Virus record (IMG/VR): IMGVR_UViG_3300023296_001674
From: a virus
Reading direction: 5' to 3' (one strand)
Length of the DNA: 64,000 nucleotides
A program made the position numbers and the translations under genes. The first letter of the stretch is position 1. The number at the start of each line of letters is the position of its first letter. The notes beneath the pieces are model-generated. The model was not told the DNA's origin. It did not search any database and worked only from the letters and a program-made list of their open reading frames with translations. Shown here one piece after another: positions 38,741 to 61,098 of this stretch.

Positions 38741-38753
38741 TAAAGGAGTTAAT

Positions 38754-39134: not shown

Positions 39135-39152
39135 CAACAAAAGAGATATATT

Positions 39153-40207: not shown

Positions 40208-40288
40208 GTATATCCTTATTCGTTATATGTTTTATCCCATCATATATTTATAATAAATATTAATAATGTATAAAATAAGGAATATATC

Positions 40289-41120: not shown

Positions 41121-41131
41121 AATATTATTCC

Positions 41132-41536: not shown

Positions 41537-41556
41537 GTTGTTATTATATATGGTTT

Positions 41557-42580: not shown

Positions 42581-42655
42581 AAGTATTCCTATACTAAATA
42601 TTAAAACAGGATATAATAAATCACAGTAAAAGTCAATAAAACAGGAAAGTATATT

Positions 42656-43045
42656 ATGAGTTTTAATAAAATCATCGACGATATTAAGATTAAGTATTTA
42701 ACGATGGACCCAAGCGTTGATCCAAAGAATAAAGAATCGCGCCGGAACTGGATATTATTCATGGCGAACAAGACACAACGGTTTCCTGTACGTCAGGTAT
42801 ATGATAGATTGATACCGTCTGTAACAAAGATGACAGTCAATACAGATATGAAATACCTTGAAGATCAAGGACTTATCAGGCGCGAGAAAGAAAGTGATGG
42901 AACATCGCATATCGTTCCATTGTTTGATGATTCAGGTGAAGCACCTGAACCAAAGCACGTCATATATAAAAGATGGGCGAAAAATGTAATATTACCACTT
43001 ATTGCCTTGACATTACTTGTCGTATTTGTTATTATCAGTGGTTGA
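42656..43045 (+). CDS. winged-helix-like protein with C-terminal transmembrane anchor
   Basis: VRQVYDRL..VTKMTVNTDMKYLEDQGLIRRE; C-terminal ILPLIALTLLVVFVIISG. Confidence 0.4.
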   Translation: MSFNKIIDDIKIKYLTMDPSVDPKNKESRRNWILFMANKTQRFPVRQVYDRLIPSVTKMTVNTDMKYLEDQGLIRREKESDGTSHIVPLFDDSGEAPEPKHVIYKRWAKNVILPLIALTLLVVFVIISG

Positions 43046-43065
43046 TATTAACGAGGAAAAAGAAT

Positions 43066-43803
43066 ATGTTATACAGTATAGGCGACGTTCATGGAAGATA
43101 TGATTTACTTAGATATCTTCATGAAAAAATAATGGAACATTCTAAACAATTTGATGAAGTGCATACAATAGTTATGTTGGGCGATTATATTGATCGTGGT
43201 CCAGATAGTAAACAAGTCATTGATTTTTTGATAACTGAACCATTTACAGATTTTAAGCATGTATATTTAAAAGGCAATCATGAAGATATGATGATAAAGT
43301 CATTATATAGTGATGAAGAAACCGTTATATATGATGTATACAAACAAGATATGTATAATGCTAGGAATATATTCTTAGGCAATGGTGGAACAACGACGTT
43401 AGAATCATTCGGGGTTGAATATATCAGACTAATGAATGATAAAGAATCCTTGGATCATGTATTTTTGCCATATTTGCCATTTTTCATGGGTTTAGAATAT
43501 TATTATGATGTTAATGGATATTATTTTGTTCATGCTGGCATTGTTCCTGGTGTTCCATTGGATCAGCAAGACCCTAACGCTGTGCTTTGGATACGTGATA
43601 GGTTTTTAAATAATACTGATGATCATGGCAGATTGATAATACACGGACACACGCCCACGACAACGCGTGGTATGGGTGCTCATCCAGAAGTTAAACCCAA
43701 CCGTATTAATATAGATACGTGTGCATATCGTACTGGAATTTTAACAGCGGTATGTCTCGACGAAGCGCATCTCCGAGTGCCAGAGTTTATTAGCACAGAA
43801 TAA
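43066..43803 (+). CDS. Ser/Thr protein phosphatase (lambda-PPase/calcineurin-like)
   Basis: GDVHGRYD, GDYIDRGPDS, GNHEDM, HGHTPT. Confidence 0.75.
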   Translation: MLYSIGDVHGRYDLLRYLHEKIMEHSKQFDEVHTIVMLGDYIDRGPDSKQVIDFLITEPFTDFKHVYLKGNHEDMMIKSLYSDEETVIYDVYKQDMYNARNIFLGNGGTTTLESFGVEYIRLMNDKESLDHVFLPYLPFFMGLEYYYDVNGYYFVHAGIVPGVPLDQQDPNAVLWIRDRFLNNTDDHGRLIIHGHTPTTTRGMGAHPEVKPNRINIDTCAYRTGILTAVCLDEAHLRVPEFISTE

Positions 43804-43886
43804 ATTGTTTTTTATTTGACATATGTGATATATATATGTTACTATCATGTTATAAAATAACAATAATCTTTAATATGGAGTAACAA

Positions 43887-44288
43887 ATGAATAAAAATCT
43901 GCTTACAACTTTGATAAATATTAATATAGTAAAGCCCGGAACCGAAATAGCAATGTTGCGTATCGGAAACTCGATGGTTGGATCAGGAGCAACCTCTTTG
44001 AAAATGAGGGTGTTTAGCACAGAAGATAAGGACGGTAATCAACAACAAATAGAAGTGAATGCAAATCATCTCGTAGAAATATATAAGTGTGAAATAATCG
44101 ATGAAGAAATATCTATATATGCACATAGCGTTGTAGATGGCGAAAAATTCATATTAAATGACGAAGATATTGTATTGATTGACAGCATGTTACCAGAAAA
44201 ATTAGCTGCGGTTTACGGATACACACCAGACGGAATCAAAAAGATACAAGGCAAAAAGCGGGGGCGTAAACCAAAAATAAGAGAGTAA
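43887..44288 (+). CDS. hypothetical protein with basic AT-hook-like C-terminus (KKRGRKPKIRE)
   Basis: ORF track; promoter TTGACA ~43815. Confidence 0.5.
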   Translation: MNKNLLTTLININIVKPGTEIAMLRIGNSMVGSGATSLKMRVFSTEDKDGNQQQIEVNANHLVEIYKCEIIDEEISIYAHSVVDGEKFILNDEDIVLIDSMLPEKLAAVYGYTPDGIKKIQGKKRGRKPKIRE

Positions 44289-44296
44289 CATAACAT

Positions 44297-44590
44297 ATGG
44301 GCAAATTAATAAGTTTTCATGATAATCCAGTAACAAGTTTAAAAAAAGAATTGATCGAAACAGAAGAAAAATTAAAAATTGCCCAACATGAGTTATCGTT
44401 TTTTAAAAGTATATATTCTACAACGCATTCAATTGGTGATTTAATAAAATTGCAGTTGGCGGATTTATCACAAAATGTAATGACGCATCAAGGACATCTT
44501 AAAATGGTTCAAGAAAATATAAATGCAATCAGAGTTAAGTTGGAAAACCTTGAAGAAATGAAGAATAGAGTAAAAATGATTGATGAATAA
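44297..44590 (+). CDS. coiled-coil protein
   Basis: ORF track; terminator ~44596-44628. Confidence 0.5.
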   Translation: MGKLISFHDNPVTSLKKELIETEEKLKIAQHELSFFKSIYSTTHSIGDLIKLQLADLSQNVMTHQGHLKMVQENINAIRVKLENLEEMKNRVKMIDE

Positions 44591-44669
44591 CAAAAAATCC
44601 ACCCTGCGAGGGTGGATTTTTTGTCTCTAATAATAAATAATAGTAGGTTTTTATTTAGAGGAATAAAAA

Positions 44670-44858
44670 ATGGCAAAATTAGCAACACAAACATTTACCA
44701 TAACATTATCTAGAGCCGTTCCATCCGATGCGTCGGGTGGTATCACTGCTTTAAATGAAGAAGCAATAGATCAATTAAAAGAAGCAATAGTTGCTTTAGC
44801 AAATGATGATAGCATAGTGGTTGATTTTGTAGAAGCATTATATGTAGGAGATGAATAA
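44670..44858 (+). CDS. hypothetical protein
   Basis: ORF track. Confidence 0.45.
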   Translation: MAKLATQTFTITLSRAVPSDASGGITALNEEAIDQLKEAIVALANDDSIVVDFVEALYVGDE

Positions 44859-45330
44859 AATGAATGATATACAATTGAGTGGAAATTTTAAATTATCAGA
44901 GTTGGTTAAGTCAGATACGGCGGAAAGGTTAGATATTGATAACTGGCCCACAGACAATGATACTATTGAAGCGTTAAGGGTGACAGCAAACAGAATATTG
45001 CAGCCCGTCAGAATGAATTACGGTATTTCTTTTTCGCCTACTAGCGGGTTTCGTTGCTTAACCTTGAATAGAGCATTAAAATCGAAAGATACATCTGATC
45101 ATGTTTTAGGTAGAGCAGTAGATTTTGAAGTACCAGGAATACCAAATAAAGATTTGGCTGTGTGGATACGAGATAACCTATCTTTTGATCAGGTTATATT
45201 AGAATTTTGGGATGGGATAAATCCAAACTCTGGGTGGGTGCATTGTTCTTTTAGATCAGAAACTGAAAATAGAAATCAGTGTTTAACTATTAATAAAAAT
45301 GGCGTATTTAATGGATTTAGAGCAAATTAA
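44851..45330 (+). CDS. peptidase M15-like zinc peptidase (candidate cell-wall hydrolase/endolysin)
   Basis: SDHVLGRAVDFEV (S-x-H-x2-G-x-A-x-D) typical of M15 family. Confidence 0.5.
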   Translation: MNKMNDIQLSGNFKLSELVKSDTAERLDIDNWPTDNDTIEALRVTANRILQPVRMNYGISFSPTSGFRCLTLNRALKSKDTSDHVLGRAVDFEVPGIPNKDLAVWIRDNLSFDQVILEFWDGINPNSGWVHCSFRSETENRNQCLTINKNGVFNGFRAN

Positions 45331-46024
45331 ACAAGAAATTTATTATTTATATGAAATTGAAAATATTATCAATGGAAAGAAATATATCGGATATACTAAT
45401 AATCCAAGACTTCGCCAAAAAGCACATTTTGTTTGGAAAAATAGTGGGTCTATATTGGTTGAACATGCTATTAAAAAATATGGATTAGATTCATTGCGGT
45501 TTAAAATACTTGTTAAATCAGACAATGAAGTATATATTAAAGATTTAGAAATTGCAGCCATTAGCTCTCTTAATACCAAAGCACCACAAGGGTATAATTT
45601 AACTGATGGCGGCGAAGGAACTCGTGGTTTGACATTATCTGATAATCAAAAAGCAGATAGAAGTAAAAACATGAAAGGTAAAATGATTGGTGAGAAAAAT
45701 CCCTTTTATGGAAAGAAACATGATCCAGAAACTCTAAAAAGAATGGTAGAAACTAGAAGAAAAAATGGATCATATGTTGCGTGGAATAAAGGCGGCGGAC
45801 ATAAATTAAGTGCTAAAAGTCGCAAAAGTCTCCGTGAAAACAGACCTGTTGGCGGGACAAAAAATCCAAACGCCAAGTTGACGGAAGAAAAAGTACGAGA
45901 AATATATAATCTAAAAGGACAAATGACTGGTGAAAAGGTCGTCATGTTCTTAGGTTTGAATGTATCTGGTGAGACCGTTAGACGTATATGGAATAGAACT
46001 ACATGGTCGAGTTTAGTATATTAA
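45299..46024 (+). CDS. GIY-YIG homing endonuclease with NUMOD-like motifs
   Basis: IYYLYEIENIINGKKYIGYTNNPRLRQKAHF; GEKNPFYGKKH. Confidence 0.7.
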   Translation: MAYLMDLEQIKQEIYYLYEIENIINGKKYIGYTNNPRLRQKAHFVWKNSGSILVEHAIKKYGLDSLRFKILVKSDNEVYIKDLEIAAISSLNTKAPQGYNLTDGGEGTRGLTLSDNQKADRSKNMKGKMIGEKNPFYGKKHDPETLKRMVETRRKNGSYVAWNKGGGHKLSAKSRKSLRENRPVGGTKNPNAKLTEEKVREIYNLKGQMTGEKVVMFLGLNVSGETVRRIWNRTTWSSLVY

Positions 46025-46069
46025 TATACTATAATAAATAATACTATATTAACGTGAAGGATCAATACT

Positions 46070-46486
46070 ATGAGTAAACAAAGCATCGTAATGTTAGACG
46101 ACACCGGCATTATTCAAAGTGTCTCTGGTGAGGCAATCCGTGCTGATGCATGGTTTGGACTTAAAGATGGATTACATACCGTTACATTTCATATGGAAGA
46201 CTTTACTGGTAGAATATACATTGAAGCCTCATTAGAAACTGAACCAGCGGAAATCGATTGGTTTCCGGTTCACTTGAATGGTGGAAATGCGTATATGCAA
46301 TATCCATTAGACCCGTTGGTTCCTACTGGCACAGCCGGTGATACATTTGTTGATGCGTTTACGTTTCAAGGTAATTTTCTTTATCTTAGAGCAAGAATTG
46401 ATCGCAGTTATTATGTCCCTGTTCCAACTACAGATGACGAAAAATCACTACTTGGGTCAGTAAAGAAGATATTATTAAATCATTAA
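46070..46486 (+). CDS. hypothetical protein
   Basis: ORF track. Confidence 0.5.
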   Translation: MSKQSIVMLDDTGIIQSVSGEAIRADAWFGLKDGLHTVTFHMEDFTGRIYIEASLETEPAEIDWFPVHLNGGNAYMQYPLDPLVPTGTAGDTFVDAFTFQGNFLYLRARIDRSYYVPVPTTDDEKSLLGSVKKILLNH

Positions 46487-46551
46487 TACTTGACAGTGGC
46501 GGATTGTTTTGTTATAATTCATAATATAAAACAAGTAAAAAGAGTTCATAT

Positions 46552-47391
46552 ATGAAATCACCATTACGATATCCGGGTGGCAAAACGCGTGCAACCAAAA
46601 CATTATACTCGTTAATACAATACCATATACAACAAAATAATATAACTGATATATGTTCGCCATTTTTGGGTGGAGGATCATTTGAATTATTTTTATGTAC
46701 AACTGGCATTAATGTTACCGGATATGACATTTTTGATCCGTTGGTAGATTTTTGGCAGTGCATGTTAACTGATCCAGATAAATTAGTTGCGGTTATAGAA
46801 ACTTATAAAAAATCATATGACAGTGGAATACCAACAGCAAAAGAACAATTTTATATATTACAAAAAACACAACACGAATATTCCGACGTATGGCACAGGG
46901 CGGCAATATTTTTCACATTGAATAGATCGTCTTTTTCTGGATCGACGATGTCTGGTGGATGGTCGCCCGATTATCCACGTTTTAATGATTCTTCTATCGA
47001 AAGAGTTAAATCATTTAACGAACCATTGCTGCAAGTTAATAAATTATCGTTTGATCAATCTATAACAAAACATAAAAACAGTTTTCTATATCTCGATCCG
47101 CCATACATGATTGAACACAATCTTTATGGAAAAAAAGGAAACACCCATAAAGATTTTGATCATTTAGGATTATATGACATATTAACAACTAGAGATAATT
47201 GGATTATGTCATACAACGATGATGCTGATATTCGAAATTTATATCAGAATTATAAAATAGAAACGGTAAATTGGGCATATGGCATGACTTCTAATCGCAA
47301 ATCAAATGAAATCGTTATATTCAGTGATGATATAATATCCGACCCTTACTCTATAGATGCTATATCAAAAGGCGCGAATATAATTTGGTAG
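46552..47391 (+). CDS. dam: DNA N6-adenine methyltransferase (Dam-like, alpha group)
   Basis: RYPGGKTR; FLGGGSFEL (motif I); LDPPY (motif IV); TTGACA-N17-TATAAT ~46491-46519. Confidence 0.75.
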   Translation: MKSPLRYPGGKTRATKTLYSLIQYHIQQNNITDICSPFLGGGSFELFLCTTGINVTGYDIFDPLVDFWQCMLTDPDKLVAVIETYKKSYDSGIPTAKEQFYILQKTQHEYSDVWHRAAIFFTLNRSSFSGSTMSGGWSPDYPRFNDSSIERVKSFNEPLLQVNKLSFDQSITKHKNSFLYLDPPYMIEHNLYGKKGNTHKDFDHLGLYDILTTRDNWIMSYNDDADIRNLYQNYKIETVNWAYGMTSNRKSNEIVIFSDDIISDPYSIDAISKGANIIW

Positions 47392-47401
47392 AAATAATGC
47401 A

Positions 47402-48535
47402 ATGTCAAGTTTGAAATATAGGAAAATACGAAAACATATGCTTGAAAATGTTATTAATTGGGGCAATTTTAAATATGTCCCAACGAAAAAAATAAAGAAA
47501 AAAACGAATATCGTTGACCGCGATGCATATAAAAATGCGTTCGGGATAGATTTAGTTTTATCCAATAATAAATCTAACAAATCCGGCGACGTTCTAGAAT
47601 GCGCAACTGCTATTGTCTTATCCAAAAAATTACATGGATCGACTATATATAAAAACAACAGAAAATCTGATAGGGTACATAATGCATTTAATGAATTATC
47701 AGAAATTGAACAATTAAAATGGTTGACGTTAGTAGAAAAAAGCGTAGATGAAATTATAGCAGCAGAAAAATTAGACGAATACACTGATATAATAATATAC
47801 TTTTGCGATCAATCACTCGAAGATGATCAACGTGATATTGTAGTAAAGTCTAATAATGATGACATTTGTGGTATATCTTGCAAGAGAAACAACACCTCTA
47901 ATAAATCTATATCGTGGTATGCCCTGACGACATTTGATAATTTTATAGTTAAGTATACCAATGGATCGATAATCGCCGATGTCATAGATCAAAATATTAT
48001 TGCGGGTTTTTACCACAGGGGTATAAAATTTATTAATCACACCACCAATATCATCGATAATATCAGAAGATGGCCTTCAACAAAAAAAGGTTATTTGCAA
48101 ACACCGCGTGAAAAAGTTATATTAAGAAATAGAATAAACATGTTACAATTAATGACTGATTATATACATAAAATGTTTGTTAGATATATAGAAATGTCAT
48201 CAAATGAAGAATATGATATACGATTATTATATAACATATTGAATGGCATAGGAAAATATGATTATTATAAAGTATCGACGACTAACGATAAACCTAACGA
48301 CGTCGAATCCATCAATACTCATAACACATTGAATAATTATACAGCAATTAAAACCCCCCTTATAATACCAAAATCATTAAATATTACGATGGGTTATGAT
48401 AAACAAAATCGTGTTATAATTATATATGATTTTGGTGGTACCAATATAATGCACATGAGATTACACACCAAGTCTGGTCGTATGTTAAATTCACATATGG
48501 GCATAGAATGCGTGAACGAAACTGCTAAAAAATGA
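47402..48535 (+). CDS. hypothetical protein (377 aa; very AT-rich; immediately downstream of dam)
   Basis: ORF track; no recognisable motif. Confidence 0.5.
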   Translation: MSSLKYRKIRKHMLENVINWGNFKYVPTKKIKKKTNIVDRDAYKNAFGIDLVLSNNKSNKSGDVLECATAIVLSKKLHGSTIYKNNRKSDRVHNAFNELSEIEQLKWLTLVEKSVDEIIAAEKLDEYTDIIIYFCDQSLEDDQRDIVVKSNNDDICGISCKRNNTSNKSISWYALTTFDNFIVKYTNGSIIADVIDQNIIAGFYHRGIKFINHTTNIIDNIRRWPSTKKGYLQTPREKVILRNRINMLQLMTDYIHKMFVRYIEMSSNEEYDIRLLYNILNGIGKYDYYKVSTTNDKPNDVESINTHNTLNNYTAIKTPLIIPKSLNITMGYDKQNRVIIIYDFGGTNIMHMRLHTKSGRMLNSHMGIECVNETAKK

Positions 48536-48624
48536 CATACACAACCCCCTAATTCTATTATATAACAAACCTAAGCCATTCTAATAAATATAAAGAGAAC
48601 ATATTTAATAGGACTATTGTATCT

Positions 48625-50991
48625 ATGGCTATACATGCACAAAAAACAACATTCAGATCGTCTGCACAATTTCCTGATTTTCTTGTAACGGGTCCGTTAA
48701 CCAATGGTCATATATTAGTTTATAGTGATGAAGTCAATGCATTTATTAATACCACAGGAACTATTGGCGGTGGCGGTGATGGCACATTAGATGGCGCAGT
48801 CAATATTGGAACTGGTTCAGAAATATTTAAAGCCATTAATGTTACAGACGAATTAGAATTAAGAACGCTACTTGGCGGTCAAGGTATATCATTACTTGAA
48901 GGCGCTAATGAAATAGAAATATCCAATGATATTATAACTGATTCTGCTATTAGTGTTGCAGATTCTTTTGTTGTAACGATAGATAATGATAACACCACAA
49001 CAGACACTGCGGTATTTGGTGTTAGCACTAATAGTTCTCCTGCAACGATAGTTGTTGCACCAGTTGCCACATATGTTGCCCCAAATTTAGATATATCGGT
49101 TGTGTTACCGAGTTCATTTGTCACTGCATCTGGTGATTTCGTAGCGGACGGTTTTGTTACCGGTATGTGCTTGAAATCAACCGGAACCACTGAACAAGAT
49201 GGTATTTGGATAATAGATACGGTAACAACCAATACAATAACAATAACTGTTCCATTTACAAATCAAACCGACGCGGGTGATCAACCAGACACAACATTGG
49301 AAGGAATGTTTGTTGTATTTACTGCTACAACTTTAACGATGACAGGGCGTGATTTCTACGAAGATGGATTTAGAGTAGGATATACAGTTGACGTAACTGG
49401 AACTACTGATAATGATGGAACATATACAATTGCAGTAATATCTGGCGCAGATATGCTTATCAATGAAACATTTCCGGTAGCGGGATGTGATGTAGGAACT
49501 ATAACTGTAGCGGTTCCTGTTCAGGATCATTCAACTGGATGGTCTGTTAATGAACTTGGTGTCACAATTTCTAACGGTGGAACATTTAACGGTGATATAA
49601 CTGTCACATCTGCCAATAATATAAACATAGACCAAGGAACATTGTTAATCGATAGTGTAGATATTATTGATACTATAAACGCTGCGATATTTACAGTTCC
49701 AACTAATGGTCTTATAACACAAACAACATCGGGCAATTTCACATCCAGAGTGGTTGCAGTTAGTGGTGGATTATCCATCGTTGACGGAGATGGAATAGCA
49801 GGCGATCCTACTATAAGCGTTGATGCATTTGACATTACGTTAGATGGAGATATAACAGGAACGGCAACTGTCACGGATTTAGGTAATACAACCATAACTA
49901 CTACATTAGGAGACAATGGCGTAGTTAATGGGACATTTAACCATGTAACCGTTGATAGCACAGGACGAGTAACAAATGGAACAAATGATGCAATCGTAGG
50001 GGCGAATGGAATAACTGTTACCAATGGTGATGGTGTTGCAGGAACTCCAACTATTACGGCGGCGGATTTTGACATAACAATAGCAGGTGATGTTATTGGA
50101 ACGGCAACAGTTACTGGATTAGCTGATGTCGTTATAACTGTAGCACTAGATGCTATAGCTGCACCAGGAACTTATAACTCAGTTACGATTGATGCAACTG
50201 GTCGAGTTACTTCTGGTTCAGTGATACCGGGCGGCAGTTATCAAGCTGCTGATCCAGAGTTAGATGATTTATCTGGCGGTTTAACCGATCCCGGTTTTAC
50301 AGTATGGGATGGCACGCAATACATCGATAGAACTATAAATGGTTCTACTAATGAGATTGTGGTAACGAATGGAGACGGTGTTGCAAGCGACGCAGTAATT
50401 GGATTGGCTGATGACCCAATCATTCCGGGAACTGGTTCTATGACAATACCAAGAGGCCCAGCGGTTGATAGACCAGGGTCGGGTGTTGAAGGTATGATTA
50501 GATATCACGCTGATGCACAAGATTTCTTTGAAGGATACACCGATACAGGGTGGCTACCATTTATGATGGATGAGGGTGTTTCATTCTTACCATTGGCTGG
50601 TGGCACAATGACTGGTGATATCACTATGGATAGCAACGATATCATCGATATTGGATTAGTTGATGGTCGTGACGTTGCAGTAGATGGTGCAATATTAGAT
50701 GATTTGAATACTGGAACCGGTATCAAAGCACAAGTAGCGGCTGGCGACTTTGAAAGTAGAACAATCGTTGGTACCGCACCAATCGTAGTCACTGATGGTG
50801 ATGGCGTAGCAGGCAATCCTACGGCATCAATGGATATTACAACTGTTACTGCCCTTGAAGTTGGGCAAGTGGTTGATGAAATAAATGATGAATTAATTAT
50901 TTACGATGATTCACAATCAGCAATGAGACGTATATCGCCAAGACAATTAAATAATAGATTTGCCCGTAGATATTTTATGGCGCAATTCTAA
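48625..50991 (+). CDS. tail fiber protein (repeat-rich, Thr/Gly/Val/Asp)
   Basis: 788 aa; recurring GDGVAG.PT..A.DFDIT..GD..GTATVT repeats. Confidence 0.55.
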   Translation: MAIHAQKTTFRSSAQFPDFLVTGPLTNGHILVYSDEVNAFINTTGTIGGGGDGTLDGAVNIGTGSEIFKAINVTDELELRTLLGGQGISLLEGANEIEISNDIITDSAISVADSFVVTIDNDNTTTDTAVFGVSTNSSPATIVVAPVATYVAPNLDISVVLPSSFVTASGDFVADGFVTGMCLKSTGTTEQDGIWIIDTVTTNTITITVPFTNQTDAGDQPDTTLEGMFVVFTATTLTMTGRDFYEDGFRVGYTVDVTGTTDNDGTYTIAVISGADMLINETFPVAGCDVGTITVAVPVQDHSTGWSVNELGVTISNGGTFNGDITVTSANNINIDQGTLLIDSVDIIDTINAAIFTVPTNGLITQTTSGNFTSRVVAVSGGLSIVDGDGIAGDPTISVDAFDITLDGDITGTATVTDLGNTTITTTLGDNGVVNGTFNHVTVDSTGRVTNGTNDAIVGANGITVTNGDGVAGTPTITAADFDITIAGDVIGTATVTGLADVVITVALDAIAAPGTYNSVTIDATGRVTSGSVIPGGSYQAADPELDDLSGGLTDPGFTVWDGTQYIDRTINGSTNEIVVTNGDGVASDAVIGLADDPIIPGTGSMTIPRGPAVDRPGSGVEGMIRYHADAQDFFEGYTDTGWLPFMMDEGVSFLPLAGGTMTGDITMDSNDIIDIGLVDGRDVAVDGAILDDLNTGTGIKAQVAAGDFESRTIVGTAPIVVTDGDGVAGNPTASMDITTVTALEVGQVVDEINDELIIYDDSQSAMRRISPRQLNNRFARRYFMAQF

Positions 50992-51020
50992 TAAATATAA
51001 GATAAAAAGGGAAATTAAAA

Positions 51021-51359
51021 ATGGCAGCAAGAAGATTCGGCGCATTAGACTTAGCAGCAACTACTGATACAGTATTGATGAGTGGCGCTTCTGGTTTTGA
51101 TTCAACCGTTAATGTTAGATTTACAAATAGAAACAGTTCAGCCGTTACGGTTAGAATGGCGCTTGTTGATGATGTATCAGGTAGCGCATTGGGAAGTTTA
51201 TCTGATGAAGATTATTTAGAATACGATACAACAATAGAAGCAAATGATGTATTAGAAAATACTGGATTAGTGATACCCGAAGATCATACAATAGTGGTTA
51301 GGTCGGACACAACATTGGTTACGGTTTTATCTTACGGTTTTGAGGAGCAAATAGTTTAA
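51021..51359 (+). CDS. small virion/tail-fiber-associated protein
   Basis: ORF track; same upstream motif ttctaataaatataa as 48625. Confidence 0.45.
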   Translation: MAARRFGALDLAATTDTVLMSGASGFDSTVNVRFTNRNSSAVTVRMALVDDVSGSALGSLSDEDYLEYDTTIEANDVLENTGLVIPEDHTIVVRSDTTLVTVLSYGFEEQIV

Positions 51360-53152
51360 TGGCGAGATATTCAACAAATAATCCGGTAGCGGTATTACCC
51401 GATTCTGGCGTGACTGCTGGTTCATATACAAATGTTGACCTTACAGTCAATAGTAAAGGTATAGTAACAGTAGCGGCTAACGGTGCTTCAGTTGCATCGG
51501 TGCTTAATGATTTAACCGATGTTACACTAACTGGACCAATAACCGATCAAGTGTTACAATATGATGGTGCAGATTGGCTTAATACAACATTAACTGTTGC
51601 ATCATTGAGTGATATTAATTTATCTGGAGTAACATCTGGGGACTTTTTAACTTTTGATGGCGCAGATTGGATTAACAGCACAATAGATGTGGTGGTAACA
51701 GGCGATATAGGCACCACAGTTCAAGCGTGGGATGCCGAACTTGACGCAATGGCAGGATTAAGTGGGACAGGATATGTCATCCACACAGGCGCAGGTACAG
51801 CCGTAGAACGCACAATCACAGGCAGTGATGGAATAATTGTAACAGACGGCGACGGAGTTGCTGGAAATACTGAAATAACTGTTACCATAGACACATTGCC
51901 ATTCACAGGACCAATAGACCCAGTTAACGATTTATTGATATTTTATAATTTAGATACTACACAAAATGAGCAAGTATCAGTTGAAGACGCAGTATTATCA
52001 GCGACACCTATTACCGATGCAATCAGCGTTGGTGGCGGATTTGAGGTGTTTAAGCAAATTAATAGCAAAGTATTAGAATTTAGAGACATATCTAGCGGCA
52101 GTGCTAGCATAGTTGTTGACATACTTTCAGATAATATTAGAATTAGTGGAACTGCCGCGTTGGATAATTTGTCTGGATTGACACCAACCGATAATAATTT
52201 TATTGTTGGTAATGGTGGATCGTGGGCGGTTGAAGATGCAACTGCATCAAGAACTTCGTTAGGATTAGGAACGATGGCGGTAGAAACCGCAGCCGATTAT
52301 TTGGCATTGGCTGGTGGAGCGATGACTGGCGATATTGATATGGCAACTAATACAATATCCGATTTGAGTGATCCGGTATTAGCACAAGATGCAGCAACAA
52401 TGAATTTCGTCGAGTTGAATTTAGCCGTTGCTGGTGATGGTATGGTTAAAATCGGCAACGAAATTGATGTTGTTGGTGGCGATGGTATTACAGCAAACGC
52501 AGATGATATTGAACTTGATTTAGTATTTCTTGATGCTCACACAGATGCATTATATTATACACAAACACAATTGGCAGACACAACCGATTCAACAGAGGGT
52601 GCATCATTAATAGGTACAGAAACCAAAGTTGGATTAAGTAATGCGACAACAGTTGAAGCCGCATTGGATTATATTGATACCACATTACCTTTTGTGTTAA
52701 CTAAATTTAGTCAAGGATTGAGTTGGAATATTAATATAACTGCTCCTTCGCCAGTGTATGTCATTGTTGATACTATCCAAGTAACACAATTTGCTGAAAA
52801 CGAAGACGGATCGGCGTATAGTGATTTCTTATTACCGATAGATTTTGATACTACCAAAGAAATGACAGTATATTTATCGATGGCAAAATCTTCCGTTGTT
52901 GCTGGCAATGTTAGTGTTGCATTAGCATGGCAACATCAACGCGTACCTGGTTTCACCTCCAATTCGTTAATTGTATTTGCCCCAGGTACAACCACCGTTC
53001 CAGATGCTAGTACATTAATATGGACTATCCCTGCTTCTACTTTTTTACCTCTTGATGTAGTAACATTGCGCGTTCAACGATTGGGTACTGATAATGGAAA
53101 TGATACATACACGGACACTGTAAATTTATTTGCGGGACATATAACACAATAA
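51359..53152 (+). CDS. tail fiber protein
   Basis: 597 aa; TVNSKGIVT.., DGDGVAGNTEITV repeats; ATGG overlap. Confidence 0.55.
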   Translation: MARYSTNNPVAVLPDSGVTAGSYTNVDLTVNSKGIVTVAANGASVASVLNDLTDVTLTGPITDQVLQYDGADWLNTTLTVASLSDINLSGVTSGDFLTFDGADWINSTIDVVVTGDIGTTVQAWDAELDAMAGLSGTGYVIHTGAGTAVERTITGSDGIIVTDGDGVAGNTEITVTIDTLPFTGPIDPVNDLLIFYNLDTTQNEQVSVEDAVLSATPITDAISVGGGFEVFKQINSKVLEFRDISSGSASIVVDILSDNIRISGTAALDNLSGLTPTDNNFIVGNGGSWAVEDATASRTSLGLGTMAVETAADYLALAGGAMTGDIDMATNTISDLSDPVLAQDAATMNFVELNLAVAGDGMVKIGNEIDVVGGDGITANADDIELDLVFLDAHTDALYYTQTQLADTTDSTEGASLIGTETKVGLSNATTVEAALDYIDTTLPFVLTKFSQGLSWNINITAPSPVYVIVDTIQVTQFAENEDGSAYSDFLLPIDFDTTKEMTVYLSMAKSSVVAGNVSVALAWQHQRVPGFTSNSLIVFAPGTTTVPDASTLIWTIPASTFLPLDVVTLRVQRLGTDNGNDTYTDTVNLFAGHITQ

Positions 53153-53168
53153 TAAGGCAGAATTACAC

Positions 53169-54890
53169 ATGGCTAATGAATTTATAGTACAAAACGGATT
53201 GATAGTTGGACGGGCGAGTGGGGCGAATATAACAGTCGTGCCAGACGTGGATGGCAGTGGGTCAGTTATATTCGATGATCGTTCTGGTGGTGTAATAGGC
53301 GATGTTAATTATAATCATACAACAGACATTTTAAGTTTGGATGTTAATGGAATATCACAAATAGCCATTTCTGCAACTGGTGTTACAGTTAGTGGTGATT
53401 TAAGTGTTACAGGAACAACCACAACAACCGACGTATTAAATTTGGTCGTAACTGATAATATCATCACCATAAATGATGGCGAAGTTGGTGCTGGTGTTGC
53501 TAACGGTGTTGGTTATGCAGGGATAGATGTTGATCGCGGAACATTAGATAATTCAGGTTGGTATTATAGCGAACCGAATAATTGGTGGGGGCCAGCGGGG
53601 CCAGAAGGAACATATGGCGCTGGTATAGGAGCAACACAAACCCTTGGTAATATAGCAGCAATCGATGCAACCGATTCAACTGATCAAATTCTAACAATCG
53701 TTTCAAATGCGGCGGTTATTCTCCCTCTTGGTAGTACCGCACAGCGACCTACTGGTGCGGAGGGTATGTTACGACAAAATTCAGATACAAACACACCAGA
53801 AATATATGATGGAACTAATTGGTCGCAAATGATAGCAACTACATCGGGAACAGCAATAGCTATAACCGGTGATATAGACATGATTAATACGCATAGCTTA
53901 TTAAATCCTATTGATCCAACAACTGATTCTGAAGTTGGTGATCGCGGTTATACCGATGGAAGATATTTGCAAATAGATAATAATTTAAGTGATTTAACTA
54001 ATGTAACACGAGCAAGACTTAATTTAGGTCTTACCGCTAGTGTATTAGATGCTGTTGGACGTGATGGTGATACTATGTATGGGTCGTTAACGGTGGGTGA
54101 TACCAGCGACGTAGAAGTAGTAGCCACAACTATAGCAGTTGCAGGAACTGGTTATGTATCAGAAGAATTAGTTACAATCGTAGGCGGAACATTTTCGAAT
54201 GCATTAGTAGTAAAAGTGTTAACGGTTGGCGGTAGTGGTGAAATATTAACATATTCACGATTTTTGAAAGGTATATATACCGTAGGGCCGGGTTCTCCAG
54301 CAGCAACAACCTCGAGTGGTTCTGGTGTAAATGCTACATTTAACCTTACTGTAACAGCATCCGATGTAAGTATATTACCAGACGAAGATTATGCAACTGC
54401 GGTTGAGCCACGTGATATAGGTAAAACTAACGGCGAAGATGGATATGCTGGCGCTAATTTAAGATTTAGAACAGTTAATGCAGAAACATTTAGAGGTGTT
54501 GCAACATCAGCGTTGTATGCCGATTTGGCTGAAAGATATGAAGCTGATGATTTATATGACGAAGGAACGGTAGTTGTATTTGGCGGTGACAAAGAAATAA
54601 CAGTAACAGGATTGAGATTTGATACCAGAGTGGCAGGTGTTATATCTATCAAGCCTGCATATAGAATGAATGAAGGTGCAGGCACAGACGAAACACACCC
54701 ATTCGTTGCACTTAAAGGAAAAGTGCCATGTAAAATTATTGGTGTGGTTAAAAAAGGTGATTTATTGACAACATCACATAAACAAGGGTATGCTATAAGT
54801 AACTCCAATGCTTTACCCTATACTGCATTCGCAAGGGCGCTGGAAGATTCAGATGGTTCAAACGATATAATCTACGTAAGTATAATATAA
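53169..54890 (+). CDS. tail fiber / receptor-binding protein
   Basis: 573 aa; Gly/Thr-rich. Confidence 0.5.
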   Translation: MANEFIVQNGLIVGRASGANITVVPDVDGSGSVIFDDRSGGVIGDVNYNHTTDILSLDVNGISQIAISATGVTVSGDLSVTGTTTTTDVLNLVVTDNIITINDGEVGAGVANGVGYAGIDVDRGTLDNSGWYYSEPNNWWGPAGPEGTYGAGIGATQTLGNIAAIDATDSTDQILTIVSNAAVILPLGSTAQRPTGAEGMLRQNSDTNTPEIYDGTNWSQMIATTSGTAIAITGDIDMINTHSLLNPIDPTTDSEVGDRGYTDGRYLQIDNNLSDLTNVTRARLNLGLTASVLDAVGRDGDTMYGSLTVGDTSDVEVVATTIAVAGTGYVSEELVTIVGGTFSNALVVKVLTVGGSGEILTYSRFLKGIYTVGPGSPAATTSSGSGVNATFNLTVTASDVSILPDEDYATAVEPRDIGKTNGEDGYAGANLRFRTVNAETFRGVATSALYADLAERYEADDLYDEGTVVVFGGDKEITVTGLRFDTRVAGVISIKPAYRMNEGAGTDETHPFVALKGKVPCKIIGVVKKGDLLTTSHKQGYAISNSNALPYTAFARALEDSDGSNDIIYVSII

Positions 54891-55627: not shown

Positions 55628-55882
55628 ATGGTAACTGAAAACTATCCCACTGTCCCATTAGCAAAGTTTGATGGTCGACCAATTGGGAAGGCTGGATATA
55701 AAGAACCGGTATTCAAAAGAAATATATTTCAAAATAGATTTATTGATGTGATTGTCACAGTCTATTCAGGCGAGATACAGCACCCAACATCGGGTCATGT
55801 ATTGGTTCCAGTTATGTTTGGCGAAATGAATGTCATACGATATTTAGATAAAACACAACTGGATTATACTATTGCTAATTGA
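55628..55882 (+). CDS. hypothetical protein
   Basis: ORF track; TTGCAT-N17-TATAAT ~55574-55602. Confidence 0.5.
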   Translation: MVTENYPTVPLAKFDGRPIGKAGYKEPVFKRNIFQNRFIDVIVTVYSGEIQHPTSGHVLVPVMFGEMNVIRYLDKTQLDYTIAN

Positions 55883-56661: not shown

Positions 56662-57513
56662 ATGTATAACACAAGAATAGCGCCATCACCAACGGGTGAT
56701 ATGCACCTTGGTACTGCTAGAACCGCTTATCATAATTTTTTGATGGCAAGGGCGTCCGGTGGAAAATTTATATTGCGCATCGACGATACTGATGCTGCAC
56801 GCAGTAAACAGTCGCACGTCGACGTCATCCTTGAAACTATGGATTGGTTGGGTTTAGACTACGACGAAATCGTTTATCAAAGTGATAGAAATGATCGTTA
56901 TATGGAAGTAATCAAACAGATGGATGCAGATGATCTTGTTTGCGAGTTAGACAATGGTGCATTTGGCACATTCATCGAAAGGGTTCCTGATGAATGGACA
57001 GATGAAATTGCTGGTGATATTATAGTGTCAGAGACCGATAGTGATATTAGTTCTAGTCTTATATTAATGAAAAGTGATGGAACTCCTACTTATCATTTTG
57101 CATCAGTAATAGATGATATGGATTTCAATATTAATTATATTATCAGAGGACACGATCATATATCTAATACACCAAAGCAACTCAATATTATGAACAACCT
57201 TGGTATGGTCATACCTAAGTTCGCACACGTGGGTCTTATTCACAAAGACGGTAAGAAATTATCTAAACGTGACGGCGCAGCAAGTATGTTGCACTATCGC
57301 GATCAAGGATATGACCCTGATGCAATGCTCAATTTTTTATTGAATCTTGGGTGGGCACCAACAAATCAAGGCAAGCAACATAAAATAATAGATCGTGATT
57401 TTGCTCTAGAGATTTTTATCAATGGTGGAAAATTGCGCAATCAATCAGCAAATATGGATTTAGCATTACTAGATTCATACAATAAAAAGTATAAGTATAT
57501 CAAGAGGAAATAA
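56662..57513 (+). CDS. class I aminoacyl-tRNA-synthetase paralogue: GluRS catalytic-domain only (GluQ-RS/YadB-like)
   Basis: IAPSPTGDMHLGTARTA (HIGH), RIDDTD, SDGTPTYHFASVIDDMDFNINYIIRGHDHISNTPKQ, DGKKLSKRDG (KMSKS); 283 aa, no anticodon-binding domain. Confidence 0.8.
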   Translation: MYNTRIAPSPTGDMHLGTARTAYHNFLMARASGGKFILRIDDTDAARSKQSHVDVILETMDWLGLDYDEIVYQSDRNDRYMEVIKQMDADDLVCELDNGAFGTFIERVPDEWTDEIAGDIIVSETDSDISSSLILMKSDGTPTYHFASVIDDMDFNINYIIRGHDHISNTPKQLNIMNNLGMVIPKFAHVGLIHKDGKKLSKRDGAASMLHYRDQGYDPDAMLNFLLNLGWAPTNQGKQHKIIDRDFALEIFINGGKLRNQSANMDLALLDSYNKKYKYIKRK

Positions 57514-57514: not shown

Positions 57515-58351
57515 ATGAAGTACGATTTAGGTTCAGATTTACACGTAGATATTAATGCGGGTCGCATTGGTATGGTTAGATTTAAAGAAATGAAAAACGC
57601 AGGTAGTGATACTATAGTATTGGCAGGTGATATATCAAATGATCCAGAACTCACTGTTAAAGTATTAGCGATGGCGGCATCGGCATATGAAAATGTAATA
57701 TTTGTGGATGGAAATCACGAACATTATAGTAACGGAAAATATGGGTTAGACGTTTCTGGTGCTATGGGATTCTTCAAAGAAGCAATAGATTTAATACCAA
57801 ATGTCACATATTTATCTGGCGACAATAACGTTATTATTGACGACACGATGTTCGTTGGGGCTAATGCTTGGTATGATTTTAGAATGGCACCACCACAATA
57901 CACGCCTGAAAAATGCAAAGAAGCATGGGAAACAAGCCTAAATGATTTTAGATTATCTAATTTTGACGTAGAGCCAGAAGTATTGGCGGGTATTCAGTCT
58001 GCATTGATTGCGGATCAAGTATCCAAAGCGCAAGATAATGACGATGTTAAAAAAATAGTAGTTGTTACCCACACCGTGCCGAACACTAAAGGATTATTAG
58101 TTAAAAATAATCCATCGTGGGATATATTAAATGGCTGTTTTGGAAATTCAACGATGTCAAACGTATGGCAAGTTGATACAAATCGCAAAATTATTCACGC
58201 AGTTTGTGGACATACACATTATCCAAATGATTTTGTCGACAACGATGGTATAAGATTTGTAATAAATCCAAGAGGTTATCATGGTGCTGAAAACGAACTT
58301 GGTGATAGATGGTTTTTAGTTCAAATGGATACATCAGACGAACGTATATAA
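57515..58351 (+). CDS. metallophosphoesterase (calcineurin-like)
   Basis: GSDLHVD, LAGDISND, DGNHEHY, VVTHTVP, CGHTHYP; ATG overlaps upstream TAA. Confidence 0.7.
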   Translation: MKYDLGSDLHVDINAGRIGMVRFKEMKNAGSDTIVLAGDISNDPELTVKVLAMAASAYENVIFVDGNHEHYSNGKYGLDVSGAMGFFKEAIDLIPNVTYLSGDNNVIIDDTMFVGANAWYDFRMAPPQYTPEKCKEAWETSLNDFRLSNFDVEPEVLAGIQSALIADQVSKAQDNDDVKKIVVVTHTVPNTKGLLVKNNPSWDILNGCFGNSTMSNVWQVDTNRKIIHAVCGHTHYPNDFVDNDGIRFVINPRGYHGAENELGDRWFLVQMDTSDERI

Positions 58352-58358: not shown

Positions 58359-58394
58359 TAAACCGGTTGGATACAGTTCTAACCGGTTTTATTT
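58359..58394 (+). terminator. rho-independent terminator
   Basis: AACCGGTTggatacagttctAACCGGTTttatttt. Confidence 0.55.
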
Positions 58395-58426
58395 TGATAA
58401 ATACCTTTACATAAAGAGGTTTCATA

Positions 58427-60076
58427 ATGACAAAATATTACATGGGTGTATCCGCTTATCATCACGATAGTGCTGCCGCGCTAATAGATGAACACGGAAA
58501 CATTATTTGCGTTAGCCAAGAAGAACGTAGAACACTTATAAAGAATGACAAATCGTGGCCTGAAGAAAGTATTAATTTTTGTTTACGTCATGCAAAATCG
58601 CAACAGTTAGATACATCCGATATCACTTATGGATTTTATGAAAAACCATGGATTAAATTTACACGTAGATTTTGTCAAAATCCTAAAGACACCGTTCGAT
58701 ATTTCAAAGAAGCATATAATACTACGAAAAAAATAAAAGGTTATAAAACCATAATGCATCACGATGCTCATGCATTGGCTGGATGTGCAACATCGCCATT
58801 TGATAATTGTGTATATTTAATAGTTGATGCAGTGGGTGAATGGGAGACGACAACTTGGGGAACATTTAATAAAATCGATGGTATAAAAAAAGAAGGGTCT
58901 ATTAGATATCCGCACAGTATAGGATTAATGTATTCATCATTTACGAGATGGTTGGGATTAAAACCAAACGAAGATGAATATATTGTAATGGGTGCGGCGG
59001 CTTTCGGTAAACCACGATTTGCTAATAAAATAAGAAAAGATTTTTTATCAGAAGTAACAGCATCGCCACATGGAATAGAATTTAAAAAAGGAGTTCATAA
59101 CGGTATAGAGCAATACTACGGCGACGAAGTTCCCGTAAAAGATTGGTATGATTGGTGTGCGAGCATCCAGTATGTATGCGAACAAATGATGATAGATTTG
59201 GTTAGAATGTTAGAGCAACAATACGGCAAAGGTCATAATTTGGTATTAGGCGGCGGTGTAGCACTTAATTGTGTGGCAAATTCTAAAATAATGAAATCAA
59301 CGCATGTGAAAGAATTATGGATATTACCAAGCCCCGGTGATAGTGGAAACGCGCTAGGGGCTGCTGCGCACGCCGCTGGCATCAATGATTTAGTTTGGGA
59401 TAGTCCTTACCTTGGAATGGACATGGATAACGACAGTAACCCAACACAGGAACTAATACGCAACGTTGTAGCAAGATTGGATAATGGTGAAATTATAGGT
59501 TGGATACAAGGCAAAGAAGAATTTGGTCCGCGCTCTTTGGGTCATCGTTCATTGCTTGCCGATCCAAGATCATCGAAAATTAAAAATAAAATAAATTTAA
59601 TAAAAAATCGACAAACATTTAGACCTTTCGCACCGTCTGTGTTAGAAGAAGAAACATATATGTATTTTGACTTACCAAATGGCACAACAAGTAGATACAT
59701 GCAATTTACAGCAAGAGTAAAAAATCCAAATATGTTACCTGCAATATGTCATATTGATGGAACCACCAGAGTTCAAACCGTACCTAAATCAACCGATCCA
59801 TTTAGACGATTGCTTGAGCATTGGAAAGAAACCACTGGTTGTGCAGCATTGTTGAACACCAGTCTTAATATCAAAGGTCAACCATTAATGAGTAATCGAA
59901 AAGATGCTATTCAAATGTTATTAGATACACCAATGGATGCATTGGTTATAGGCAATAGATTGTACTATAAAATAACAAAAGATGGATTAAGCGATGAACC
60001 CGGCGAAACGGTTCAAATAGCAGAATGTATAGATTACAGCCAAGGCGTTGATGACATGATTAAAGGTCGTTTCTAA
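58427..60076 (+). CDS. NodU/CmcH/TobZ-family carbamoyltransferase (Kae1-like + YrdC-like architecture expected)
   Basis: MTKYYMGVSAYHHDSAAALIDEHGNIICVSQEERRTLIKNDKSWPEE N-terminus typical of Carbam_trans_N; 549 aa; RBS aagagg. Confidence 0.7.
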   Translation: MTKYYMGVSAYHHDSAAALIDEHGNIICVSQEERRTLIKNDKSWPEESINFCLRHAKSQQLDTSDITYGFYEKPWIKFTRRFCQNPKDTVRYFKEAYNTTKKIKGYKTIMHHDAHALAGCATSPFDNCVYLIVDAVGEWETTTWGTFNKIDGIKKEGSIRYPHSIGLMYSSFTRWLGLKPNEDEYIVMGAAAFGKPRFANKIRKDFLSEVTASPHGIEFKKGVHNGIEQYYGDEVPVKDWYDWCASIQYVCEQMMIDLVRMLEQQYGKGHNLVLGGGVALNCVANSKIMKSTHVKELWILPSPGDSGNALGAAAHAAGINDLVWDSPYLGMDMDNDSNPTQELIRNVVARLDNGEIIGWIQGKEEFGPRSLGHRSLLADPRSSKIKNKINLIKNRQTFRPFAPSVLEEETYMYFDLPNGTTSRYMQFTARVKNPNMLPAICHIDGTTRVQTVPKSTDPFRRLLEHWKETTGCAALLNTSLNIKGQPLMSNRKDAIQMLLDTPMDALVIGNRLYYKITKDGLSDEPGETVQIAECIDYSQGVDDMIKGRF

Positions 60077-61098
60077 TGCACCCATATATGTTTGTTTTAA
60101 AACTTGCGACACTTAAAAAAATGGCTGATAAAAAAACGGTGTTGCGCGGTGCAGCGGTAGATGGATGCATCAATTTATTTGAAGGTTTTCAATTAGCGTT
60201 TGATAAAAAACGAGTATTTCATGTTAAAAGTGTGCCATTGATTGAAATAGATGAAACAATGTCACAAGATGAAATAACCGAAAATGGAACATACACTTGG
60301 GATATGTTTAAGGCGTTGGTTGGTTTATTAGAAAAAAATGATATTGATGAAGAAACGAAAAAAACGCTATTATATGAAGCGTGTGAACAATCGGGAATAT
60401 TAGAATGGAATGGATTCTATCGTCCCATACTCATGAAAAATATTAAATGTGGGGTAATGCCAAAAACAATAAACGCGATATTGGATGAATTCGGCGGAAC
60501 GGCATTGAAATATAAAATACCAATATGGAAAATACAACGAATACATCAAAATGGATTACATGTAGGTGAAAAATATGTAGAACCATTATTAGATGGCAAA
60601 CGAGCAATCACGATTGTAAATAAAGAATTAAAAATTGCTCAAATGTTTTCTGAAACTGGTGTATTAATAAAAACCCACAAAATAGATTTGGAACCATTGG
60701 CAGAATTGTCATATCAATTTCCAGCAAGTATGGTATTCGATGGTAATATAATCGATAGAAGTTATGGTGAACTTATGGATAAATCTGGAACCGATTCATA
60801 TTATGCGATATATGACATTATTCCGTTATCTGATTTTGAAAAAAGTTATTGCCCAATGGCGCTAACAGATCGAAAAAATACATTAAATGACCTTAACCTC
60901 ATTCTACGCGAAGAAACGAATGGGCAGATATATGTCCTACCGTCTTTACTGATGGATTTTTCTGCTGAAAATAAAGAAAAGAAACTAAAAGAAATTTCCG
61001 ATGAAATAAAAAATGCCGGATTTAAAGCATCAGTTGTCAAAGATAGCAAATCATTCTACACTTGTGCACGCGATTTATCATGGTTCAAAACACAATAA
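60076..61098 (+). CDS. hypothetical protein (340 aa); weak ligase/nucleotidyltransferase-like motif spacing
   Basis: LLDGKRA, VFDGNII, GFKASVVKD in ligase-like order but motif I lacks Lys; speculative. Confidence 0.45.
   Translation: MHPYMFVLKLATLKKMADKKTVLRGAAVDGCINLFEGFQLAFDKKRVFHVKSVPLIEIDETMSQDEITENGTYTWDMFKALVGLLEKNDIDEETKKTLLYEACEQSGILEWNGFYRPILMKNIKCGVMPKTINAILDEFGGTALKYKIPIWKIQRIHQNGLHVGEKYVEPLLDGKRAITIVNKELKIAQMFSETGVLIKTHKIDLEPLAELSYQFPASMVFDGNIIDRSYGELMDKSGTDSYYAIYDIIPLSDFEKSYCPMALTDRKNTLNDLNLILREETNGQIYVLPSLLMDFSAENKEKKLKEISDEIKNAGFKASVVKDSKSFYTCARDLSWFKTQ

Follow-up and report, generated by a model that had tools for sequence, protein, structure and literature searches.

A predicted class III O-carbamoyltransferase conserved in one lineage of giant phages

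The carbamoyltransferase gene and its product

We have analysed a 64,000-nucleotide stretch of viral DNA, hereafter the window (IMG/VR record IMGVR_UViG_3300023296_001674), which contains near its right end a gene initially annotated, from the letters alone, as a NodU/TobZ-type O-carbamoyltransferase of a phage. The open reading frame (ORF) starts with ATG and occupies exactly positions 58427-60076 of the plus strand, so that both its position and its length of 549 amino acids (aa) were given correctly at the outset. The features of the gene and its product are as follows.

58427..60076 (+): carbamoyltransferase gene, class III / TobZ-NodU-CmcH type, 549 aa (ORF, Pfam, PHROG, PDB, AlphaFold2/Foldseek)
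58414..58419 (+): Shine–Dalgarno-like sequence AAGAGG, 7 nt before the carbamoyltransferase ATG (sequence)
58427..59386 (+): Kae1-like (ASKHA) N-terminal domain, residues ~1-320, putative carbamoyl-transfer site (alignment to GdmN 7vyj_A)
58463-58465 (+): H13, predicted general base (aligns to GdmN H27)
58757-58759 (+): H111, predicted metal ligand (aligns to GdmN H133)
58769-58771 (+): H115, predicted metal ligand (aligns to GdmN H137)
58826-58828 (+): D134, predicted metal ligand (aligns to GdmN D156)
59339-59341 (+): D305, predicted metal ligand (aligns to GdmN D333)
59474..59968 (+): YrdC-like C-terminal domain, residues 350-514, putative carbamoyl-AMP-forming site (Pfam Carbam_trans_C)
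59969..60073 (+): C-terminal extension of 35 aa with two predicted beta-strands (AlphaFold2 secondary structure; group-specific columns 508-537)

That the protein belongs to the class III TobZ/NodU/CmcH O-carbamoyltransferases is established as far as computation allows, and the gene apparently encodes a genuine, functional, ATP-dependent enzyme of this kind in a phage. Two Pfam families are recognised well above their gathering cut-offs, Carbam_trans_N (PF02543) at 8.3e-46 over residues 6-313 (model positions 3-345/346) and Carbam_trans_C (PF16861) at 1.5e-55 over residues 350-514 (model positions 3-169/170). Since both domains are covered almost end to end, the match is no coincidence of 50 residues. 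The phage profile phrog_1601, 'Nol-like carbamoyltransferase', matches residues 5-514 at 2.3e-99, and sequence searches against the PDB return NovN (1.3e-59), VtdB (3.2e-58), GdmN (~2e-57) and TobZ (1.9e-41). The protein begins with MTKYYMGVSAYHHDSAAALIDEHGNIICVSQEERRTLIKNDKSWPEE. The motif string originally quoted for this region came close to the actual signature stretch, AYHHDSAAALIDEHGNIICVSQEERRTLIKNDKSWP, but this contains YHHDSAAAL, a Leu in place of the second Arg and WP in place of FP.

In GdmN the iron is bound by H133, H137, D156 and D333, while H27 serves as the general base; the ligands are highly conserved in class III (PMC9633730). All five map one-to-one on the phage protein. 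The corresponding H13 (also the counterpart of the general base H14 in TobZ), H111, H115, D134 and D305 are invariant in an alignment of 32 sequences, made up of homologs with 40-72% identity to the query and including 15 lineage members at 59-72%. Within the YrdC-like domain the same alignment contains the invariant blocks G367-P368-R369, G372, R374, K393, R395, F398-R399-P400-F401 and N477-T478..N481. K393, R395 and S479 show little or no variation, the equivalence to TobZ K443 and S530 being drawn from spacing only. Again by spacing, W359, G372 and R374 would be the counterparts of TobZ W408, G421 and R423; they are the same residues as in TobZ, which by itself is uninformative as to membership in the group of enzymes acting on 5-hydroxymethylcytosine (5hmC).

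An AlphaFold2 model built from the homolog alignment reached a mean pLDDT (predicted local distance difference test) of 89.2 and a predicted template-modelling score (pTM) of 0.88. Its best Foldseek matches in the PDB are GdmN (8e-43), NovN, TobZ (3e-39) and VtdB, with a template-modelling score (TM) of ~0.8 across both domains, whereas Kae1/TsaD structures superpose on the N-terminal domain only (~1e-8, TM 0.35-0.39). The profile and structure comparison proposed in the initial annotation thus gives a TobZ-like protein over both domains with a Kae1/TsaD similarity confined to the first, and the Kae1-like motifs and the YrdC-like domain, without which the assignment was to be abandoned, are both present. 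The carbamoyl-AMP mechanism assumed there is indeed established for this family (PMC9633730). By analogy with TobZ and GdmN, the YrdC-like domain would condense carbamoyl phosphate and ATP to carbamoyl-AMP, and the Kae1-like domain would pass the carbamoyl group to an acceptor hydroxyl by means of the metal site H111/H115/D134/D305 and the base H13. The predicted fold, the domains and the catalytic residues point to a catalytically competent enzyme, whose chemistry would be that of its family.

Three closer assignments were considered and rejected. The protein is not a NodU ortholog, the match to NCBIfam NF041651 being partial (residues 241-491 only) and scoring 138 bits against a cut-off of 1000. 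It is not a HypF either, since TIGR00143 gives 18 bits against a cut-off of 466 and neither acylphosphatase nor zinc-finger Pfam domains were found. A tRNA N6-threonylcarbamoyladenosine (t6A) transferase of the TsaD/Kae1 type resembles it in the N-terminal domain alone, and the carbamoyltransferase families match instead.

TobZ, the nebramycin/tobramycin 6''-O-carbamoyltransferase (PDB 3VEN), and VtdB (7XB6) share with the phage protein the Kae1-like plus YrdC-like architecture, the metal ligands and the general-base histidine, and like it they are without a large dimerisation domain. Foldseek E values for the pair lie between 3e-39 and 8e-39 at a TM of ~0.8, and the carbamoyl-AMP mechanism is presumably common to them and the phage protein. 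The latter differs in its sequence (~25% identity), in having no antibiotic cluster around its gene, and in its 35-aa C-terminal extension, a predicted beta-hairpin. GdmN (7VYJ) and NovN (9S2T), the ansamycin and novobiocin O-carbamoyltransferases, provide the best matches in sequence (1.3e-59) and in structure (8e-43), but bear a C-terminal dimerisation domain of ~100 aa and a hydrophobic macrocycle pocket, whereas the phage protein is without that domain. The rhizobial Nod-factor O-carbamoyltransferases NodU and NolO have the same Pfam domains and a sugar hydroxyl as acceptor, as we propose here. A more general logic, in which a YrdC-like domain makes an acyl-adenylate and a Kae1-like domain transfers the acyl group, is shared with TsaC/TsaD in t6A synthesis and with HypF.

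The C-terminal extension occurs in this phage lineage and not in relatives of ~480 aa (the group at 40% identity covers ~89% of the query). The isoelectric point, 6.1-8.7 in the lineage versus a median of 7.0 elsewhere, is uninformative on nucleic-acid binding.

Phage genome and local gene order

The identical protein is encoded on four contigs of the 0.2-1 Mb class, one of which is the ENA contig k141_202852 (ERZ27315719) of 570,549 bp. The window overruns the end of this contig, and a gene from the left end of the window recurs at position ~38.5 kb of the record with a wrap-around offset of 141 bp. Since 141 is also the k-mer length used by the assembler, the assembly is circular, with a length of ~570.4 kb, and the phage falls in the megaphage size range. 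The nearest isolated relatives of its DNA polymerase PolB, at 41-44% identity, belong to Sinorhizobium phage Phosso (469 kb), Agrobacterium phage Atu_ph07 (490 kb) and CBB-like jumbo phages; jumbo phages whose PolB is 42-44% identical span 350-490 kb. Neither a near-identical nor a close DNA relative was found in the phage collection. The phage origin proposed from the start is well founded on gene content: besides the tail-fibre-like proteins and the jumbo-phage-like PolB, there is a T4 DsbA-like regulator, GIY-YIG and HNH homing endonucleases, a Dam-type methyltransferase, ArdC-like, ART and Macro accessory proteins and, directly upstream of the window, a homolog of T4 rIIB.

The carbamoyltransferase gene follows, in this order, the tail fibres, a RyR-domain protein, two small or uncharacterised genes, a GluRS-like gene, a metallophosphoesterase and a hairpin. 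Downstream come a ligase homolog, the DsbA-like regulator, PolB (1.4 kb downstream), ClpP and a 5′-3′ exonuclease. The neighbouring features are these.

48625-54890: tail-fibre-like proteins, a phage hallmark
54903-55565 (+): RyR-domain protein, 220 aa, closing the tail-fibre block
55628-55882 (+): uncharacterised protein of 84 aa after the RyR gene
56662-57513 (+): truncated GluRS-like protein, 283 aa, catalytic domain (PDB, NCBIfam)
57515-58351 (+): calcineurin-like metallophosphoesterase (phrog_1649, 1.9e-41), one base after the GluRS-like ORF
58360-58389 or 58360..58399 (+): intrinsic-terminator-like hairpin, 12-bp stem and T-run, in the phosphoesterase/carbamoyltransferase gap (top-ranked site)
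60076..61098 (+): ATP-dependent DNA-ligase homolog, 340 aa (phrog_114, 1.3e-12; PDB 6rar ligase, 7e-30)

Terminator-like and sigma-70-like sites are no more numerous in the region than in shuffled sequence, and we therefore infer a function of the hairpin from its position and stem length. So understood, it would set off the carbamoyltransferase and ligase-homolog genes as a transcription unit separate from the GluRS-like/phosphoesterase pair. The T4-type late promoter TATAAATA gave no signal, with 7 matches against 9.6 expected.

The ATG of the ligase homolog shares one base with the stop codon of the carbamoyltransferase gene (TAATG). Its motif I, KxDGxR (KLDGvR in 6rar), is changed to LLDGKR with replacement of the adenylation lysine, motif III from DGE to DGN (Glu to Asn) and motif IV from EG to KA, and it has no OB domain. 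A degenerate homolog is also present in the related contig L002 (11641-12669), while the related phages L005 and L006 have full canonical ligases at the same position. The protein is probably a pseudo-enzyme with an altered role, to judge from these motifs. The GluRS-like protein has a HIGH-like HLGT and a KMSKS-like KLSKR motif and no anticodon-binding domain, as in the GluQRS/YadB architecture. It is nearer to bacterial GluRS (PDB 7k86, 1.8e-62) than to YadB (3.6e-23), and scores below the NCBIfam cut-offs for both. Its pairing with the metallophosphoesterase recurs in L002 and L094, and in all lineage contigs examined the tail-fibre block ends with the RyR-domain and 84-aa proteins. PADLOC assigned neither the enzyme nor its neighbours to a defence or anti-defence system, one weak hit to the phosphoesterase excepted. 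That a 570-kb phage should keep a truncated GluRS and a dead ligase homolog is no less curious than the enzyme.

Several other features were observed elsewhere in the window. Base composition changes stepwise, from ~39-44% GC over positions 1-34000 to ~33-36% over 34000-50000, and is higher again in the tail-fibre genes at 50-54 kb; the low-GC stretch carries several minus-strand genes as well as homing endonucleases. At least three paralogous endonuclease-like genes of ~245 aa (6522-7271 on the plus strand and 11698-12435 on the minus strand of the window, and 12265-12999 of contig L177) are of DUF723 or HNH type by PHROG and have near-identical N-termini, e.g. KTTEQFIQESTAIHGDVYDYS, and their scattered distribution suggests an actively spreading homing element. 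A Macro-domain protein (12617-13462), a 'polyvalent' protein with ArdC-N and zincin metallopeptidase domains (31625-32593) and an ART-PolyVal ADP-ribosyltransferase (33324-33755) are candidate host-takeover or anti-defence effectors. An extremely acidic, low-complexity protein of 253 aa with long D/S/G-rich runs and no family match is encoded at 37596-38357 (+). At 46552-48535 (+), a D12-class (Dam-like) N6-adenine DNA methyltransferase and a 377-aa protein without family match precede the tail-fibre genes.

A subfamily confined to one phage lineage

A large protein search returned ~25 homologs at 57-72% identity, after which identity falls sharply to 44% or less. The best cellular match, among one-genome-per-species assemblies, is 43% identical, and a search of IMG/VR with the single protein as query found no close relative and hence no member of the subfamily. 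A common gene order links eight distinct contigs of the close group: RyR and GluRS-like genes come first, then variable genes, the carbamoyltransferase gene and more variable genes, and finally ligase, PolB and ClpP (ORFs in related loci were called by a simple longest-ORF heuristic). The enzyme is thus conserved within a single lineage of giant phages, and its subfamily is found only on metagenomic contigs of that lineage. Structural genes on one side and replication genes on the other enclose the variable accessory region in which the gene lies, at the point where an accessory island meets the replication module. Two irregularities of the polymerase were seen in related contigs: in L006 (12335-14545) PolB is interrupted by an intein-like segment (PF14890, weak), and in L002 (13339-16687) ORF clustering splits the polymerase into two PolB-like pieces.

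In a neighbour-joining tree, a simple one without support values, which weakens what we build on it below, the lineage forms a single branch that is sister to the whole viral group at ~40% identity, including Ralstonia jumbo phage RsoM2USA; a Kyanoviridae enzyme and a clade of faecal phages lie farther out. The annotated context in RsoM2USA and in phage C48C1 is all or mostly 'hypothetical' and hence uninformative.

Phage carbamoyltransferases are already known as an annotated family, one member of which has a proven function on DNA and RNA. The profile phrog_1601 is present in 136 phage records, mostly of cyanophages, and includes proteins of pelagiphage HTVC008M and of jumbo phages such as RsoM2USA. 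The protein described here matches this profile over its full length and is likewise a phage accessory gene product, but differs from its members in being at most 40% identical to any deposited phage sequence and in forming a separate subfamily. It would accordingly count as a new, lineage-specific member of the family with catalytic residues that appear intact. In the literature on carbamoyloxymethyl bases we found only Yang et al. 2021 (eLife, PMC8670742), and the word carbamoyltransferase was not found in top-ranked literature on huge phages or cyanophages.

The acceptor of the carbamoyl group

The initial annotation listed a DNA hydroxymethyl base, a tRNA nucleoside and a cell-surface sugar as candidate substrates, which we judge a reasonable choice. 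We give about an even chance to a reading in which the acceptor is a hydroxyl of a sugar-type compound or small molecule and the enzyme has outlasted an ancestral gene island that is now mostly gone. This reading starts from the neighbours of the related genes. In the viral group at ~40% identity, radical SAM/SPASM genes lie nearby in 52 of 80 loci, often as 4-8 tandem paralogs, accompanied by genes for DegT aminotransferases (27/80), NAD-epimerases/dehydratases (24/80) and UDP-glucose dehydrogenases (12/80), and several uncharacterised families also recur there. Some cellular homologs belong to clusters of this type; those of Streptomyces and other bacteria are surrounded by genes for radical SAM proteins, aminotransferases, AMP-binding proteins and 2-oxoglutarate-dependent oxygenases. 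Within the lineage itself, L002, whose enzyme is 72% identical, keeps one radical SAM/SPASM gene of that cluster 4.8 kb upstream. The characterised relatives with solved structures all tailor sugars or small molecules, and class III enzymes without a dimerisation domain usually accept polar substrates (PMC9633730), so that a polar acceptor would be usual for a protein built like this one. Acceptor-pocket segments mapped from GdmN show 56-88% consensus identity between the two viral groups versus 42% for the whole protein; as these segments are also structural, this lends weak support to a common class of acceptor.

Large aquatic viral contigs give the most detailed picture of the island. In L013 (1-10000), L032 and L037, tandem radical SAM/SPASM, UDP-glucose dehydrogenase, DegT and epimerase genes lie directly upstream of the carbamoyltransferase gene, together with unannotated families of about 450, 376 and 355 aa. 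It is apparently a widespread, uncharacterised viral biosynthetic island.

Several observations speak against a sugar-type acceptor. Among window ORFs of at least 70 aa, Pfam identified no glycosyltransferase, nucleotide-sugar or radical SAM gene, so that there is no visible source of such an acceptor nearby. That the enzyme was kept after loss of the island argues for its independence from the island's product, and acceptor specificity need not be conserved at 40% identity. The gene adjoins genes of DNA metabolism (the ligase homolog, which it overlaps, PolB and the 5′-3′ exonuclease), and ligase domains are enriched on cytosine-modified contigs (PMC8670742). In addition, the portion of the genome inspected was ~78 kb, or ~14% of ~570 kb.

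These last points lead to the possibility that the enzyme carbamoylates a nucleic-acid base, converting 5hmC or another hydroxymethyl base in phage DNA or dNTPs to the carbamoyloxymethyl form and so guarding the genome from host nucleases. There is a direct biochemical precedent in the purified enzyme of Yang et al., which converts 5hmC to 5-carbamoyloxymethylcytosine in DNA, RNA and 5hmdCTP (PMC8670742). Like the protein described here, it is phage-borne, of the TobZ type and similar in size (63 kDa as purified versus 549 aa), and it uses carbamoyl phosphate, ATP and Fe2+ (PMC8670742). Its gene, however, lies on cytosine-modified contigs within ~3 kb of a thymidylate synthase of the dCMP-hydroxymethylase type, and none lies near the gene studied here; the distinction drawn here between the two enzymes is one of gene context. 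The hallmark of the modified contigs is this ThyA-family dCMP hydroxymethylase with Asp177, often with MazG-like and deaminase genes, whereas carbamoyltransferases on unmodified contigs adjoin glycosyltransferases and similar genes (PMC8670742).

We therefore looked for the hallmark at several levels. The Pfam survey of window ORFs just mentioned identified no thymidylate synthase, deaminase, MazG or TET protein, and precomputed Pfam assignments gave no ThyA-family member among the called genes of the flanks (6 kb downstream and 8 kb upstream). A jackhmmer search with T4 gp42 and E. coli ThyA was run on all stop-to-stop frames of 179 sources, consisting of the window, the lineage contigs, the 80 viral and 80 cellular loci of the nearest relatives and a few phage records. 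It gave two hits only, both beside distant relatives and both with the canonical Asn177. The E. coli query sequence was checked by these two hits (1e-95 or better, with C146, H147, R166 and N177 aligned). Similarly, no ThyA was found in a faecal phage contig and its relatives, which had been searched for a ThyA-linked clade of the 5hmC type. The co-occurring genes of the modified contigs are thus missing from the window, and the dCMP hydroxymethylase also from all close-group contigs and from the 160 nearest viral and cellular loci.

A DNA hydroxymethyl base, as first suggested, is therefore reasonable in principle and demonstrated for another phage enzyme (PMC8670742), but its genomic hallmark was not found here. 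The hydroxymethylase could lie in the other ~490 kb (~86%) of the genome, and beyond the DNA-metabolism neighbourhood and the link between ligase domains and modified contigs, the adjacency of carbamoyltransferase and ligase recurs in a subclade of distant relatives. In that subclade the carbamoyltransferase gene comes between a radical SAM/sugar island and a run of ligase, PhoH and exonuclease genes. We conclude that the junction of carbamoyltransferase and ligase is old and reflects the meeting of two modules, not a functional partnership. We hence rejected the adjacency as decisive evidence for DNA, since the same junction parts the sugar/radical SAM island from the PhoH/exonuclease module. 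With the nearest relatives placed in sugar or small-molecule contexts, a base as acceptor seems unlikely to us, if worth serious attention. We hold it somewhat less probable still that the enzyme modifies a hydroxymethyl base with the dead ligase as its DNA-binding partner, or that it builds a new nucleic-acid hypermodification together with the truncated GluRS. A role in translation, in which a tRNA nucleoside or an aminoacyl or related intermediate is carbamoylated with the aid of the neighbouring synthetase-like genes, appears very unlikely. The truncated GluRS lies upstream in seven of the eight lineage contigs and a CysRS-like gene downstream in three, but as all these contigs are syntenic relatives the linkage is no independent evidence, and the terminator-like hairpin parts the GluRS-like/phosphoesterase pair from the carbamoyltransferase. 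Aminoacyl-tRNA synthetase genes serving translation are common in huge phages, no tRNA genes lie in the window, and we know of no natural tRNA substrate of a TobZ-type enzyme. On the other side, the superfamily includes the tRNA t6A enzymes TsaC and TsaD, and the enzyme of Yang et al. also modified 5hmC in RNA (PMC8670742).

Even less probable, in our opinion, is the carbamoylation of a protein, as by HypF on HypE, whether the target is a protein of the virion or host or a peptide that radical SAM/SPASM enzymes have matured. The superfamily includes the S-carbamoylating HypF, distant relatives adjoin tandem radical SAM genes of the SPASM type often involved in peptide maturation, and the gene comes after the tail-fibre block. 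The HypF similarity is nonetheless far below its cut-off and lacks the accessory domains, as noted above, no radical SAM gene lies in the window, and in the relatives these genes go along with enzymes of sugar-nucleotide metabolism. Finally, that the gene is a decaying, non-functional remnant, or that the region is cellular, we find barely credible. The presumed ancestral partner island has gone and the adjacent ligase homolog is degenerate, but the ORF is of full length, its catalytic residues are invariant in the 15 aligned lineage members and the AlphaFold2 model is confident. A cellular origin is at odds with phage hallmark genes all round and with closure of the genome as a ~570-kb circle.

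Returning to a sugar-type or small-molecule acceptor, the carbamoyl group formed and transferred by the two domains would be placed on a polar hydroxyl, e.g. of a glycan or metabolite made or met during infection. The enzyme would be a leftover of the radical SAM/aminosugar accessory island still borne by more distant viral relatives, and may be expressed as a separate unit with the degenerate ligase homolog.

If a glycan or metabolite is decorated, the gene would be one more accessory tailoring gene of a giant phage, useful for annotation and unsurprising. The subfamily, at 57-72% identity and present only in relatives of this phage, is in itself a clean lineage marker. If it is the DNA that is carbamoylated, this would be the first such DNA assigned to a defined giant phage genome, and one without the usual adjacent hydroxymethylase. 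The only known carbamoyl modification of DNA, so far represented by an enzyme cloned from a metagenomic contig, would then extend to a defined megaphage lineage, and it would follow that the modification can be encoded apart from its hydroxymethylase.

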